A stretch of 64,000 bases of DNA from an uncultured Candidatus Saccharibacteria bacterium (lineage in GTDB: Bacteria; Patescibacteriota; Minisyncoccia; Phycocordibacterales; UBA9973), in assembly GCA_964474435.1 (NCBI GenBank), contig CAYYSI010000001.1, positions 270,835-334,834 on the forward strand, in the 5' to 3' direction. Made by a program: the position numbers and the translations under genes. This document shows, piece by piece, positions 8,441-61,910 of the stretch (positions within the stretch are counted from its first letter, which is position 1; each line of letters starts with the position of its first letter). Below the pieces are notes generated by a model. The model saw nothing but the letters and a program-made list of their open reading frames with translations, was not told the DNA's origin and ran no database searches.

Positions 8441-8470
8441 TTTTAAAATCGAACTTCCACACTATACCAA

Positions 8471-40906: not shown

Positions 40907-40977
40907 GACCTGGTGGCCAAGTGGTAAGGCGGTTCTCTGCAAAAGAACTATACGCGAGTTCGATTCTCGCCCAGGTC
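40907..40977 (+). tRNA. tRNA-Cys (GCA)
   Basis: GACCTGG..anticodon loop CTGCAAA..T-arm GCGAG-TTCGATT-CTCGC..CCAGGTC with U73. Confidence 0.85.
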
Positions 40978-41007
40978 TCCCCACCGTTTAACAACACAAT
41001 ATATTTT

Positions 41008-41090
41008 GCCCGGGTGATGGAATGGTAGACATAGAGGACTTAAAATCCTCAGACAGAAATGTCGTGTGGGTTCGAGTCCCACCCCGGGCA
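41008..41090 (+). tRNA. tRNA-Leu (UAA)
   Basis: GCCCGGG..anticodon loop CTTAAAA..long variable arm..GTGGG-TTCGAGT-CCCAC-CCCGGGC-A. Confidence 0.85.
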
Positions 41091-41152
41091 CACCGAGATA
41101 ATGCTTGAAAGAGTCTGGTATATACGGTATTATTGGCACCAGTACCTAGCGT

Positions 41153-41234
41153 GCTGGAGTGGCGGAATTGGTATACGCGCTGGTCTTAGGAACCAGTGCC
41201 GCAAGGCTTAGGAGTTCAAGTCTCCTCTCCAGCA
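41153..41234 (+). tRNA. tRNA-Leu (UAG)
   Basis: GCTGGAG..anticodon stem CTGGT-CTTAGGA-ACCAG..variable arm..AGGAG-TTCAAGT-CTCCT-CTCCAGC-A. Confidence 0.8.
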
Positions 41235-41260
41235 CCCTGGGTATTCATTCAAAACTAATT

Positions 41261-41333
41261 GCCCCTATAGCTCAGTTGGTAGAGCAGCTCCCTCTTAAGG
41301 AGACGGTCGTAGGTTCGAATCCTACTGGGGGCA
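41261..41333 (+). tRNA. tRNA-Lys (CUU)
   Basis: GCCCCTA-TA-GCTC-AGTTGGTA-GAGC..anticodon loop CTCTTAA..GTAGG-TTCGAAT-CCTAC-TGGGGGC-A. Confidence 0.85.
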
Positions 41334-41344
41334 CACGACGAGAA

Positions 41345-59172: not shown

Positions 59173-59189
59173 ATACTCCTAGTATAGCA

Positions 59190-60921: not shown

Positions 60922-61109
60922 ATCTTGGGATCGCACTATATGGGCATGTAATAAAGCTACTATACCAAGGCTCACTTCCCGGTTGAAGTGGTAGGTGAAA
61001 AATGGTATAGTCTGCAAGTTCTTTTTAAAGAGCTCCTCATAGGTTCGAATCCTATTCGGGGAGCACAAATACAATCCCCTGTAGCTCAGCGGTAGAGCAG
61101 TCGCCTGTG

Positions 61110-61661
61110 GAAAGGTGTGGAATGGTATACTTTATTGAGTATGCCAGAAACCCGAACCTATGCCGATCGAGCCGCCTATATGCGCGAAGCTGTCAAAAAA
61201 CGAAGGATTAAACTTCGCGAAATGGCACGCGCATACAAAGGTGGCCGATGTGAAATTTGTGGATACGCTAAATGCAGCCGCGCACTTTCATTTCATCATC
61301 TTGATCCAAAACAAAAAAGCTTTGGGTTATCAGACAAAGGACTTACCCGTTCATGGGAAAAGACCAAGACTGAAATAGATAAATGTATTTTATTGTGTGC
61401 AAACTGTCATATGGAAATCCACGACGGTATTACGCAGCTTCCTGTCCGAAAGGCAGGTCGAAAAACGAAGTGAATTGCTGGAAGTCCTAAACACATAGGA
61501 TAATCAGCAGCCAAGCTTTTGTAGAAATACAATTGAAGGTTCAGAGACTATCCCTAACGGGAGTACTCCGACAATATGTCGGCGGAAGCGCTTCGCACCT
61601 TCCCTTTTTAAAAAGAATGGTGATGATATAGTCCATACCCGCAGTAATGCGAGAATAAATG
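61110..61661 (+). mobile_element. Group I self-splicing intron carrying an HNH homing-endonuclease ORF
   Basis: The conserved core elements are read directly: P-like AATTGCTGGAAG (61474), Q-like AATCAGCAGC (61503), R GTTCAGAGACTAT (61540-61552) and S GATATAGTCC (61624-61633). The intron ends in G before exon 2. Confidence 0.7.
61117..61473 (+). CDS. HNH homing endonuclease (intron-encoded)
   Basis: GGRCEICGYAKCSRALSFHHLDPKQK......CILLCANCHMEIH is the HNH motif with a C-C-C-C zinc scaffold. It lies entirely within the intron, upstream of the catalytic core. Confidence 0.65.
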   Translation: MEWYTLLSMPETRTYADRAAYMREAVKKRRIKLREMARAYKGGRCEICGYAKCSRALSFHHLDPKQKSFGLSDKGLTRSWEKTKTEIDKCILLCANCHMEIHDGITQLPVRKAGRKTK

Positions 61662-61724
61662 TAAGCGATTGGTCGTAGGTTCGATCCCTACCGGGGGAGC
61701 AAAAAATGTTATACTGTCTATAGT

Positions 61725-61910
61725 ATGACCTACCCAGAATTTGTAAAAGAACTTACAGAGCGTTTTGGTGAAGACCAGGGAGTATTTATGGCACTTCGAG
61801 CAGAGGTCGGTTTCCTGCGTAGGTACATGGAAAAACACAGTGGACCAGAGTTCGTACAAGAACAAGAAGTAATGATTGCAGATTTCCTTGAGCGTCATCC
61901 TACTAAATAA
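61725..61910 (+). CDS. Hypothetical small protein (61 aa)
   Basis: An ORF between an extended -10 promoter (TGTTATACT) and a strong terminator. Confidence 0.3.
   Translation: MTYPEFVKELTERFGEDQGVFMALRAEVGFLRRYMEKHSGPEFVQEQEVMIADFLERHPTK

Follow-up and report, generated by a model that had tools for sequence, protein, structure and literature searches.

An HNH endonuclease gene in the P1 loop of a subgroup IA group I intron that interrupts the anticodon of a tRNA-Asn gene

Introduction

At one locus of the 64-kb stretch of DNA analysed here (the window), two halves of a tRNA lie more than half a kilobase apart with a reading frame for an HNH nuclease between them, and this raises the questions of whether the halves are the exons of a genuine tRNA gene, and of how a nuclease gene and the element that carries it can occupy some of the same nucleotides. 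To the first the answer is that the locus is a real tRNA-Asn gene, whose anticodon is interrupted by a group I intron encoding the nuclease. Elements of this class were already described in Patescibacteria in 2025–2026, and the window copy adds a further one. Nakagawa et al. (mSystems, 2026, PMC13011429; preprint 10.1101/2025.07.03.662931) reported group I introns of subgroup IA inserted at 35/36 in the tRNA-Asn(GUU) genes of Patescibacteria, demonstrated in vitro that a homologous tRNA-Asn intron splices itself, using as control a mutant whose terminal G was changed to C, found HNH (PF01844) genes in four tRNA-Asn introns, and concluded from 95 complete genomes that endonuclease-bearing tRNA introns are rare; the insertion type, as that paper relates, was first catalogued as 'Asn.4Ug' by Williams (2020, 10.1101/2020.01.27.920355). 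What is added here is the anatomy of the P1-loop gene, its own extended −10 element, and the free-standing copies of the gene.

The host of the window copy is judged to belong to the Patescibacteria (Paceibacteria-type), indirectly, from the labels of 80 related loci: nearly all of these are MAGs labelled Paceibacterota, Nomurabacteria, Kaiserbacteria, Parcubacteria, Saccharibacteria or Patescibacteria group, a few bear no more than the name 'bacterium', and a single one that of Burkholderiales.

Results

The interrupted tRNA-Asn gene

Table 1. Position of the elements of the locus in the window, in order of their first nucleotide, with the basis of each assignment.
Feature	Coordinates	Strand	Basis or remark
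Pre-tRNA promoter-like site, TTGAAG, 17 nt, TG-n-TATAGT (extended −10)	60983..61011	+	Consensus scan
tRNA-Asn exon 1	61075..61108	+	ARAGORN, introns allowed
P1 5′ strand, CUGU↓G (arrow, splice site)	61105..61109	+	Complementary to CGCAG 61433-61437
Group I intron, subgroup IA, 553 nt	61109..61661	+	Rfam RF00028; ARAGORN and P9.0 covariation
TGGTATACT, extended −10 promoter-like element of the HNH cassette, in the P1 loop	61123..61131	+	Motif conservation
HNH endonuclease gene, 110 aa and stop (MPETRTY...ITQLPVRKAGRKTK)	61141..61473	+	Pfam, PHROG, homologue alignment
Internal guide sequence	61430..61437	+	CGCAG in 60/65, GCAG in 65/65 introns
P2 hairpin, CCUGUCC GAAA GGCAGG	61441..61457	+	RNAfold; inside HNH reading frame
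P3 5′ strand, CGAAGUG	61466..61472	+	Pairs with 61589-61595
P4-P5 domain	61476..61509	+	Covariation alignment
P6 and P6a	61511..61539	+	P6a from Rfam alignment and fold
P7 5′ strand, GACUA, in R element	61546..61550	+	Invariant; pairs with 61629-61633
P7.1 and P7.2	61551..61582	+	Extra hairpins between P7 and P3 3′ strand
P3 3′ strand, CGCUUCG	61589..61595	+	Covariation alignment
P8	61596..61622	+	Four basal pairs 100% paired, 3 covary
P7 3′ strand, UAGUC, in S element	61629..61633	+	Covariation alignment
P9.0 enclosing P9	61635..61660	+	Covariation alignment
Terminal (omega) G, 3′ splice site after it	61661	+	G before TAA, 67/67 loci
tRNA-Asn exon 2	61662..61699	+	ARAGORN

When ARAGORN was run without an intron search it found no tRNA at the split locus, and with introns allowed it returned a tRNA-Asn(gtt) spanning 61075-61700, in which an intron of 553 nt follows position 34 of the gene, a boundary that corresponds to the standard anticodon position 35/36. 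The first exon (Table 1) holds the 5′ strand of the acceptor, the D arm, the 5′ strand of the anticodon stem and the loop residues C32, U33, G34 and U35; the second holds U36, A37 and A38, the 3′ strand of the anticodon stem, the variable loop, the T arm and the 3′ strand of the acceptor, and ends at the discriminator G61699, the CCA not being encoded. Once joined, with the loop CUGU↓UAA, the exons are again called tRNA-Asn(gtt) and fold into a perfect canonical cloverleaf with a GUU anticodon and a G73 discriminator, as is typical for bacterial tRNA-Asn. The spliced tRNA measures 72 nt to the discriminator, the 73 of ARAGORN counting the next base. Two identical Logan contigs have their first base within exon 2.

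The sequence-only reading of this DNA had proposed a tRNA-Asn(GUU) split at 35/36 by a group I intron, with the loop CUGUUAA restored on splicing, a U at the end of exon 1 and a G at the end of the intron, and all of this agrees with the present results (U61108 and G61661). Its coordinates identified the right locus, but were one base off, since the gene begins at 61075 instead of 61076, and the last base of exon 1 is T61108 instead of 61109; splicing at the junction as it was first given would yield a false 'gtgt' anticodon. Its two halves do join into a cloverleaf, with an intron of 553 rather than 552 nt and a tRNA of 72 rather than 73 nt.

Among the related loci, exon 1 ends in CTGT and a G directly precedes TAA in all 67 that were compared, across which the anticodon stem covaries, and a split tRNA gene with the HNH gene inside the intron is found in 68 of the 80; the arrangement is, therefore, not due to chance. 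It might be asked whether the interrupted gene is instead a tRNA-Thr(UGU) with its intron at 33/34 or, if the boundaries are moved by a single base, a tRNA-His(GUG), as in about half of the related loci ARAGORN does call Thr(tgt/cgt) at 33/34 or His(gtg), and the same mis-annotation of tRNA-Asn loci has been published (PMC13011429). However, only the 35/36 boundaries combine a U at −1 with a terminal G, the intron ending in A under the Thr reading and in U under the His reading, and the terminal G is fixed as G61661 because the covarying P9.0 stops immediately before it. Moreover, the spliced product is identical at 70 of 72 positions to the uninterrupted tRNA-Asn(GUU) of a syntenic locus (L119, 3098-3170), at least 120 metagenome contigs contain the 31-nt Asn junction letter for letter and without an intron, one of them that same syntenic locus, and the sequenced product of in-vitro splicing corresponds to 35/36 (PMC13011429). 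A Thr or His identity is thus hardly credible, and the gene is read here as tRNA-Asn. The intron is optional at this site, present in some genomes and absent from others.

Just upstream of the split gene, at 61031-61067, there is a piece resembling the 3′ half of a tRNA. Considered as one half of a second split tRNA, it found no partner in ARAGORN searches with introns of up to 3 kb; in the loci of the closest genomes it is decayed (L013, JAMIGL01) or absent (L003, CAYZSX01), and it is therefore treated as a relic.

The ribozyme

A covariance-model search, which had been proposed as a check, gave a full-length match to the Rfam model RF00028 (Intron_gpI) at 61381-61654, with 82.3 bits (E 2e-19) against a curated cut-off of 50 bits. 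In an alignment of 55 homologous introns (48 distinct sequences), covariation supports the helices P2 to P9: 94.8% of the helix cells are paired, as against 81% in shuffles and 35–44% with slid partners, changes have taken place on both sides in 23 of 40 pairs, and none of 500 shuffles matches the observed pairing. The P3–P8 core, including the P3/P7 pseudoknot, is thus present with the support of covariation, to which P7 and P6 do not contribute because they are invariant (in P6, both pairs). In P3, 98.2% of the cells are paired and four of the seven pairs have changed on both sides; the figures for P4 (61476-61481 with 61504-61509) and P5 (61484-61489 with 61496-61501) together are 95.8% and seven of ten. 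P2 is folded by RNAfold as a hairpin of 5–8 bp in 55/55 introns, with a loop of 4 nt (5 nt once) that is mostly of the GNRA type. P9.0 consists of two pairs, AU 61635-61636 with AU 61659-61660, which are 100% paired and both covary (AU:51/GC:4; CG:30/UA:25), and it encloses P9 (61638-61653) with its GUAA loop. The P, Q, R and S elements picked out in the sequence-only reading coincide, respectively, with the 5′ and 3′ strands of P4 and the 5′ and 3′ strands of P7.

Two additional hairpins, P7.1 and P7.2, which lie after the 5′ strand of P7 and before the 3′ strand of P3, define subgroup IA, a definition that reportedly goes back to Michel and Westhof in 1990. The classical tRNA introns of cyanobacteria and proteobacteria, of subgroup IC3, are devoid of these two hairpins and have a compact core, as in Azoarcus and Anabaena. 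In the window intron P7.1 (61551-61562) is paired in 97.6% of the cells, with two covarying pairs, and P7.2 (61568-61582) was read from the sequence; their presence places the intron in subgroup IA and is at odds with IC3. The tRNA-Asn introns of Patescibacteria were also assigned to IA by the subgroup models of Nakagawa et al., who found none of the tRNA introns of this phylum to be IC (PMC13011429), in contrast to most bacterial tRNA introns, which are IC.

That the locus could be a decaying relic, with a dead intron or a pseudo-tRNA and with Asn decoding left to a gene outside this locus, has in its favor that the window covers only 64 kb, which leaves room for a second tRNA-Asn, and that tRNA debris (the fragment described above) lies nearby. 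Against this, the window copy retains 56/56 invariant positions of the ribozyme alignment, every helix tested pairs in it, the cloverleaf is perfect, and the HNH frame is intact with all of its conserved residues; in addition, neither ARAGORN nor Rfam scans found a second tRNA-Asn within the 64-kb window, and in the complete genomes tested by others the interrupted gene is the sole copy (PMC13011429). Decay is consequently very improbable, if slightly less so than a mistaken tRNA identity, and the locus is taken to be functional.

As a separate observation, the first ten nucleotides of the intron contain a complement to its last 3–4 nt in 16 of 67 introns, compared with 9.4 ± 1.9 in shuffles; this end-to-end complementarity is limited to some clades and is absent from the window copy.

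The guide sequence

The 5′ splice site falls after U61108, which in P1 stands opposite G61434 as a wobble pair. The guide consists of UUA, the P10 strand, which pairs with the UAA of exon 2, followed by CGCAG, the 3′ strand of P1. The HNH gene thus lies in the loop of P1, between its 5′ strand (61105-61109) and the guide (61433-61437), and its last codons, Ile-Thr-Gln, encode the P10/P1 guide, G61434 occupying the third position of ACG, the codon for Thr; the frame then crosses P2 into P3, where the stop codon (TGA, 61471-61473) overlaps the 5′ strand. The frame had been placed just after P1 in the sequence-only reading, which does not hold.

P1 has only 5 bp and is almost invariant, so that it is supported by its complementarity and by one compensatory variant, CUGU↓C with GGCAG in locus L024, and less strongly than the other helices, because its pairing hardly varies. 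Locus L042 likewise has a C at intron position +1, with GGCAG at the matching spot. P10, of only 3 bp, is variable. Two other candidates were considered and set aside: (i) a local P1 whose guide (GUGG at +9) would lie no more than 20 nt into the intron, which gives four pairs, three of them wobble, is not conserved, and was rejected because the distant CGCAG is near-invariant; and (ii) the stem CCUGUC/GGCAGG (61441-61457) as guide or mimic of P1, which covaries freely in other loci and is therefore P2.

The nuclease and its distribution

The program-made open reading frame gave 118 aa from a GTG at 61117, the length also adopted in the sequence-only reading; its HNH assignment stands, and the homologues move the start to the ATG at 61141, for a protein of 110 aa. 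The protein matches Pfam PF01844 (HNH) with 23.0 bits against a cut-off of 21.4, and PHROG HNH families with up to 102.5 bits, the best being PHROG 2255, 'HNH endonuclease'; a search of NCBIfam with it returned nothing. It has 612 homologues at 61–92% identity, the closest at 91–92%. Across 24 sequences C45, C48, H60, H61, N96, C97, H98 and H102 are invariant and C94 is at least 90% conserved (residues numbered on the 118-aa frame; subtract 8 for the 110-aa protein), so that all of the catalytic and zinc-binding residues of HNH are kept, among 31 invariant residues in the alignment. An AlphaFold model of moderate confidence (pLDDT 75.6) contains the beta-beta-alpha elements; with it, Foldseek found no match in the PDB at E ≤0.001, the top weak matches being the HNH domains of Cap5, Cas5-HNH and McrA. 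At the sequence level, the PDB entry that comes nearest is 6me0 (E 0.0023), a group II intron maturase/reverse transcriptase, through its HNH domain.

Relatives of the nuclease are present in at least 583 species genomes, a lower bound from a scan of 185,579; since, moreover, such introns are published, the view of the sequence-only reading that an HNH-bearing intron at 35/36 of tRNA-Asn would be unusual no longer applies. Free-standing copies of the HNH gene occur in 10 of the 80 related loci, next to a tRNA-Asn intron that has no ORF; they lie on either side of it and on either strand, and have lost the guide string.

The protein is presumably an HNH homing endonuclease. It could alternatively have ceased to be one and have been kept for another role, such as that of a splicing helper (maturase) or of a host nuclease, as might be suggested by its very high conservation over many genomes and by the maturase domain as best PDB sequence match. 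Nevertheless, a gene always found within or next to the tRNA-Asn intron, on whichever side or strand, fits a nuclease targeting that site, for which uninterrupted alleles are common; the metal- and zinc-binding residues are invariant; the homologous intron that splices alone in vitro was evidently ORF-less, with the T7 promoter placed directly on exon 1; and the guide encoded by the gene accounts for some of the conservation at the C-terminal end. Another role is, in our opinion, unlikely, and we retain that of homing endonuclease.

Promoter-like elements

Upstream of exon 1, the site at 60983-61011 matches the consensus at 9 of 12 positions, with a TG before the −10, and would be the promoter of the pre-tRNA; the motif TGNTATANT is enriched in the window, with 22 sites where 6.3 would be expected. 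Within the P1 loop, the element TGGTATACT, whose form in the family is TGGTATAMT, 6–10 nt ahead of the start codon, ends 9 nt before the ATG at 61141, and other genes of the window show the same geometry between −10 and ATG. The pattern TG-n-TA[TC]A-n-T is found in 55 of 65 ORF-bearing introns, 10–25 nt (46 once) after the splice site, and is followed at 5–10 nt by a start codon in 45 of the 55; eight of the other ten have GTG starts that were missed by the script. The motif also precedes the free-standing HNH copies in loci L024 and L025, and the ORF-less introns of the same two loci do not carry it. These features suggest that TGGTATACT acts as the promoter of the HNH cassette, and its distance from the ATG argues, therefore, for a separate and leaderless HNH mRNA without exon 1 as the most likely source of the protein.

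Discussion

We hold with high confidence that the locus is a functional tRNA-Asn(GUU) gene, with a self-splicing IA intron at 35/36 that carries an HNH homing cassette in its P1 loop. The structure of the ribozyme and its conservation were observed, and catalysis by the window intron would be expected by analogy with a homologous intron, whose splicing in vitro has been published. The pre-tRNA would probably be transcribed from 60983-61011, and P1 would form across some 325 nt, CUGU↓G with CGCAG, whereupon guanosine would attack after U61108; G61661, placed by P9.0 and by the P10 pairing of UUA with UAA, would then direct the ligation of the exons, restoring the loop CUGUUAA. In the full-length precursor the same AUG would be internal and without a Shine-Dalgarno sequence, for which reason poor translation is expected, and ribosomes would be kept off the guide, P2 and P3. 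As for mobility, a step deduced from the distribution of the gene, tRNA-Asn genes that have no intron would presumably be cut by the nuclease close to where the intron inserts, and repair would then bring in a copy of the intron, or of the cassette by itself.

This leads to the second question, that of the shared nucleotides, to which we give a more guarded answer, leaning only slightly towards it. The nuclease could be a self-contained cassette, formed by the extended −10 element and the leaderless frame, that exists in two states, either beside an ORF-less intron or in the P1 loop. In the embedded state, its last codons would have become the guide for P10 and P1, P2, and part of P3, in such a way that dual coding would lock protein and ribozyme together, and expression from the cassette's own leaderless transcript would leave the splicing-competent precursor free of ribosomes. 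If so, the family would provide a large body of natural cases in which to study how free-standing nucleases merge with introns, and nuclease-bearing tRNA introns would be much commoner in Patescibacteria than complete genomes had suggested.

As a discovery the locus has small weight, as its class was published in 2025–2026 with splicing experiments. The practical value lies in annotation: default tRNA finders miss the gene and intron-aware ones often say Thr or His, so that the genomes of the phylum appear to have no tRNA-Asn and their completeness scores suffer. For the co-evolution of introns and homing endonucleases, the points of interest are (i) a P1-loop reading frame sharing nucleotides with the guide sequence; (ii) a promoter moving with its gene, and free-standing and embedded states of one nuclease; (iii) and finally, the number of species genomes in which the nuclease occurs.

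With respect to the introns of Nakagawa et al., the host gene, the site, the rule of U at −1 and terminal G, the subgroup IA and the host phylum are the same, the HNH PF01844 is shared with their four cases, as is the ARAGORN mis-annotation as Thr or His, and nothing essential differs. That paper (PMC13011429) did not place the reading frame in the intron structure, nor does it mention an internal promoter, the overlap of guide and codons, or free-standing copies of the gene, and its 'rare', from 95 complete genomes, contrasts with the at least 583 of 185,579 species genomes with a relative of the nuclease found here. Greater differences separate the window intron from the cyanobacterial tRNA-fMet(CAU) intron (I-SspI/I-Ssp6803I; Bonocora and Shub, 2001, as cited in PMC3984707), which has an endonuclease of the PD-(D/E)XK type instead of HNH, an insertion at 33/34 instead of 35/36, and a host of another phylum. 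The combination of IA and HNH is shared with phage introns that encode HNH nicking endonucleases (I-HmuI of SPO1; I-PfoP3I of cyanophage Pf-WMP3, PMC3428280), which are found in protein-coding genes, for example that of DNA polymerase (PMC3428280), whereas the host gene in the window is a cellular tRNA. The window protein also strongly matches a phage HNH family, the PHROG 2255 noted above. The reading frames of these phage introns are generally located in other peripheral loops, and that of the window lies in the P1 loop and extends into the guide, P2 and P3.

The occurrence of the tRNA-Asn HNH family both inside and beside the intron recalls 'collaborative homing', and a route by which mobile introns may arise, reportedly put forward in 2009 by Zeng, Bonocora and Shub, and by Bonocora and Shub. 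An example of a free-standing homing endonuclease for intron insertion sites is mobE of phage T4 (PMC2790892). The likeness resides in the 10 of 80 loci where the HNH gene and its promoter motif stand outside an ORF-less intron of the same tRNA gene; however, those earlier cases concern phages and protein-coding genes, whereas here there is one nuclease family, with one presumed target, in many cellular genomes.

The split tRNA-Asn gene and its splice junctions

At 61075-61699 a default ARAGORN run reports no tRNA, while listing seven elsewhere in the window, and the Rfam tRNA model yields the same seven and no others; with intron search switched on, ARAGORN places a tRNA-Asn(gtt) at 61075-61700, interrupted by 553 nt after gene position 34. 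A D loop of seven bases makes gene position 34 equivalent to standard position 35, so that the insertion falls between U35 and U36, as a sequence-only reading of this DNA had proposed. That reading had the locus and the anticodon-loop junction right and the 5′-end positions one base too high, and joining the exons at its coordinates gives a nonsense four-base anticodon; joined at the corrected junction, the exons form a perfect cloverleaf, called by ARAGORN as tRNA-Asn(gtt).

Were the boundaries shifted, the gene could be taken for a tRNA-Thr(UGU) with an intron at 33/34, or for one with a His(GUG) anticodon, and ARAGORN does give Thr or His calls in about half of the homologous loci; only with the 35/36 boundaries does exon 1 end in U and the intron in G. 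The junctions read CTGT/G...G/TAA without exception in 67 loci, where the flanking anticodon stem covaries, and in P9.0 the two bases preceding the terminal G pair with the two bases after P7, both pairs covarying with no exceptions in an alignment of 55 introns (AU:51/GC:4 and CG:30/UA:25). Together with the uninterrupted genes described next, these comparative data settle the splice junction at 35/36.

The spliced product is identical at 70 of 72 positions to the uninterrupted tRNA-Asn(GUU) of a related contig (L119, 3098-3170), which is syntenic with the window (pyruvate kinase gene upstream, the same small ORF downstream), and the intron is therefore a presence/absence polymorphism. The exact 31-nt spliced junction is found uninterrupted in at least 120 metagenome contigs (L083-L202), and such contigs are abundant in groundwater and soil metagenomes.

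Features of the split tRNA-Asn locus (window positions) and loci with a free-standing HNH gene
Feature	Position or locus	Strand	Remark
tRNA-Asn exon 1	61075-61108	+	3′ end ...GTCGC-CTGT, sequence reading
Intron	G61109 to G61661	+	sequence reading
Promoter-like motif in intron	61123-61131	+	ATG at 61141
P7.1	61551-61562	+	extra hairpin between P7 and P3 3′ strand
P7.2	61568-61582	+	extra hairpin between P7 and P3 3′ strand
tRNA-Asn exon 2	61662-61699	+	5′ end TAA-GCGAT, sequence reading
Free-standing HNH gene, upstream	L024 (1501-2225), L025 (1501-2301), L029, L030
Free-standing HNH gene, downstream	L042
Free-standing HNH gene, opposite strand	L015, L026, L062, L074, L076

The ribozyme core

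The group I assignment, also made from sequence alone, is borne out by a full-length match to the Rfam Group I intron on the forward strand at 61381-61654 (score 82.3 bits where the cut-off is 50; E 2e-19), the sole intron hit in the 64 kb; the strings that had been singled out as P, Q, R and S are strands of P4 and P7. The folding check suggested at that stage could likewise be completed, with P2-P9 fitted to 55 introns and a CGCAG guide located. For this, the 3′ portions (220-280 nt) of the 55 introns, all homologous, were aligned and a hand-drawn structure was tested on them: standard pairs occupy 94.8% of cells, against 81.0% in column shuffles and 35-44% with slid partners, both partners vary in 23 of 40 pairs, and the observed covariation score was reached by none of 500 shuffles. 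P3, P4, P5, P7.1, P8, P9.0 and P9 covary, and P6 and P7 show no variation; RNAfold predicts P2 (61441-61457) as a hairpin in all 55 sequences, 48 of them distinct, with a mostly GNRA loop of 4 nt (5 nt in one sequence). Two hairpins, P7.1 and P7.2, between P7 and the 3′ strand of P3 are the hallmark of subgroup IA, and by them the intron belongs to this subgroup, in agreement with the published classification.

Some homologous introns are enlarged in their periphery, around P6 or P7.2, by an extra 80-170 nt (L025, 317 nt; L066, L067 and L071, 640-723 nt). The last three intron bases have their reverse complement within the first ten in 16 introns out of 67 (9.4 ± 1.9 after shuffling), as in GGACGC...GCG and GUCAC...GUG; among them are L019, L020, L023, L033, L047, L064, L065, L067, L072, L080, L081 and others, the window copy not being one. 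These complementary ends may form an alternative pairing that competes with P9.0, or may be an effect of shared ancestry.

An endonuclease gene within the P1 loop

The near-invariant string A-U-U-A-C-G-C-A-G lies at 61429-61437, about 325 nt downstream of the 5′ splice site. Its CGCAG pairs with CUGU/G, setting U61108 opposite G61434 as the wobble pair, and the UUA ahead of it is able to pair with the UAA of exon 2 as P10. In naturally ORF-less relatives P1 is a short hairpin, CUGUG-GCAUAA-CGCAG in L025 and CUGUC-AGUAA-GGCAG in L024, where the intronic pair is altered on both sides. The distant guide sequence and the short hairpin of these relatives therefore place the endonuclease gene inside the P1 loop, and not just after P1, where it had been put initially.

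The 3′ end of the ORF crosses the guide sequence as the codons Ile-Thr-Gln, the wobble G being the third base of ACG, and continues through P2 into the 5′ strand of P3, to a TGA stop at 61471-61473. In the homologue alignment, ITQLP is the most conserved stretch of an otherwise variable HNH protein C-terminus, because the end of the ORF shares its nucleotides with the guide sequence, P2 and P3. Bacterial group I intron ORFs normally lie wholly in peripheral loops, and where they reach into the ribozyme core their expression is tightly controlled (reviewed in PMC3984707).

As to the protein, a 118-aa frame of HNH character was recognized early and is present, mechanically opened at GTG 61117 (Pfam HNH, 23.0 against a cut-off of 21.4 bits), but homologues begin (MPE...) at ATG 61141, giving 110 aa. 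There is a strong match to phage HNH endonuclease families (PHROG 2255, 102.5 bits), and the two Cys pairs, the HH and the motif N and H are invariant or nearly so among homologues. The AlphaFold model is moderate (pLDDT 75.6); it predicts a long N-terminal helix followed by beta-beta-alpha elements, with weak PDB fold matches to the HNH domains of Cap5, Cas5-HNH and McrA.

A promoter-like motif and the proposed expression

TG-n-TA[TC]A-n-T occurs in 55 of the 65 introns that have an ORF, in the stretch leading from the 5′ splice site to the start codon, most commonly as TGGTATACT or TGGTATAAT, with the start codon 5-10 nt past it in 45 of the 55; in eight of the remaining ten, GTG starts were missed by the start-codon script. 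The extended −10 form TGNTATANT is enriched 3.5-fold in the window (22 sites, where 6.3 ± 2.2 would be expected; for example 8461-8469 and 59181-59189 on the reverse strand, 61003-61011 and 61707-61715 on the forward strand). The motif is found upstream of tRNA genes, including the split tRNA-Asn itself (TTGAAG-17-TATAGT, 60983-61011); four other ORFs, 61 to 654 aa long, have it 6-10 nt ahead of their initiation codons, one of them a hibernation-factor gene (starts at 61725 and, on the reverse strand, 59172, about 49127 and about 21768). It also accompanies free-standing copies of the HNH gene, and is absent from their ORF-less introns.

These sequence patterns argue for a promoter and against a ribozyme element. 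The motif would be an extended −10 promoter of the host, from which a leaderless mRNA is made; the ATG of the HNH gene has no Shine-Dalgarno sequence in front of it, and the spacing of motif and start suggests that leaderless mRNAs could be common in this genome. A transcript from the internal promoter, having no exon 1, would be unable to splice, and in the full precursor the buried AUG should be a poor start. In other words, separate transcripts would uncouple translation from ribozyme folding.

Embedded and free-standing states of a known family

The HNH protein has 612 database homologues, the best 120 of which are 67-91% identical, and among 185,579 species, each represented by a single genome, at least 583 encode a relative. 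The 80 loci listed are nearly all labelled as Patescibacteria lineages (Paceibacterota, Nomurabacteria, Kaiserbacteria, Parcubacteria and others), with one labelled Burkholderiales and a few only "bacterium". When these loci were fetched, the gene lay within the tRNA-Asn intron in 68 and was free-standing, beside a tRNA-Asn with a 216-331-nt ORF-less intron, in ten, of which Rfam intron hits confirm six; the other two are cut by contig ends. The free-standing copies of L024 and L025 have the TGGTATACT motif and a C-terminus that no longer encodes the guide sequence. The free-standing HNH genes resemble phage nucleases, likewise free-standing, that target intron insertion sites, and their arrangement also recalls a route proposed for the invasion of introns by such genes.

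A tRNA-Asn split by an HNH-bearing group I intron is already known. Across 95 complete Patescibacteria genomes, 15 tRNA-Asn(GUU) genes have group I introns at 35/36, nearly all of subgroup IA and four encoding HNH (PF01844) endonucleases, and self-splicing in vitro was precise, a terminal G-to-C mutant being the control (Nakagawa et al., mSystems 2026, PMC13011429; preprint July 2025); the insertion type had been listed earlier as "Asn.4Ug" (Williams 2020, as told by PMC13011429). The same authors called nuclease-bearing tRNA introns rare, from complete genomes only, and expected draft genomes to add more. The element in the window thus joins a family already described, and the sequence-only interpretation, correct in substance, is overtaken in its claim of unusualness. 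PMC13011429 makes no mention of the position of the ORF in the structure, a promoter, leaderless expression or free-standing copies, and the interest that remains lies in (i) the dual-coded guide sequence, (ii) the proposed mobile promoter-plus-ORF cassette, and (iii) the coexistence of free-standing and embedded states.

Neighbouring tRNA features and assembly ends

Between the promoter-like site and the start of tRNA-Asn, a look-alike of a tRNA 3′ half (61031-61067) comprises a short hairpin, a T arm (ATAGG-TTCGAAT-CCTAT) and an acceptor 3′ strand (TCGGGGA), then G and CA; intron-aware ARAGORN found no matching 5′ half. It is decayed in the related locus L013 and absent from L003, and is probably what remains of an earlier tRNA gene or of an exon 2 duplication. 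Elsewhere in the window, a cluster of four tRNAs (40907-41334: Cys-GCA, Leu-UAA, Leu-UAG, Lys-CUU) is uninterrupted throughout, including tRNA-Leu(UAA), a classical intron host.

Two independent public assemblies 100% identical to the window (L001 and L002, from SRR13208906 and SRR13208889) both start 5-13 nt inside exon 2, their first positions being window 61666 and 61674, respectively; a branch point of the assembly graph may lie where intron and exon meet, for example through a mixture of alleles with and without the intron, or of several strains that have the tRNA in common.
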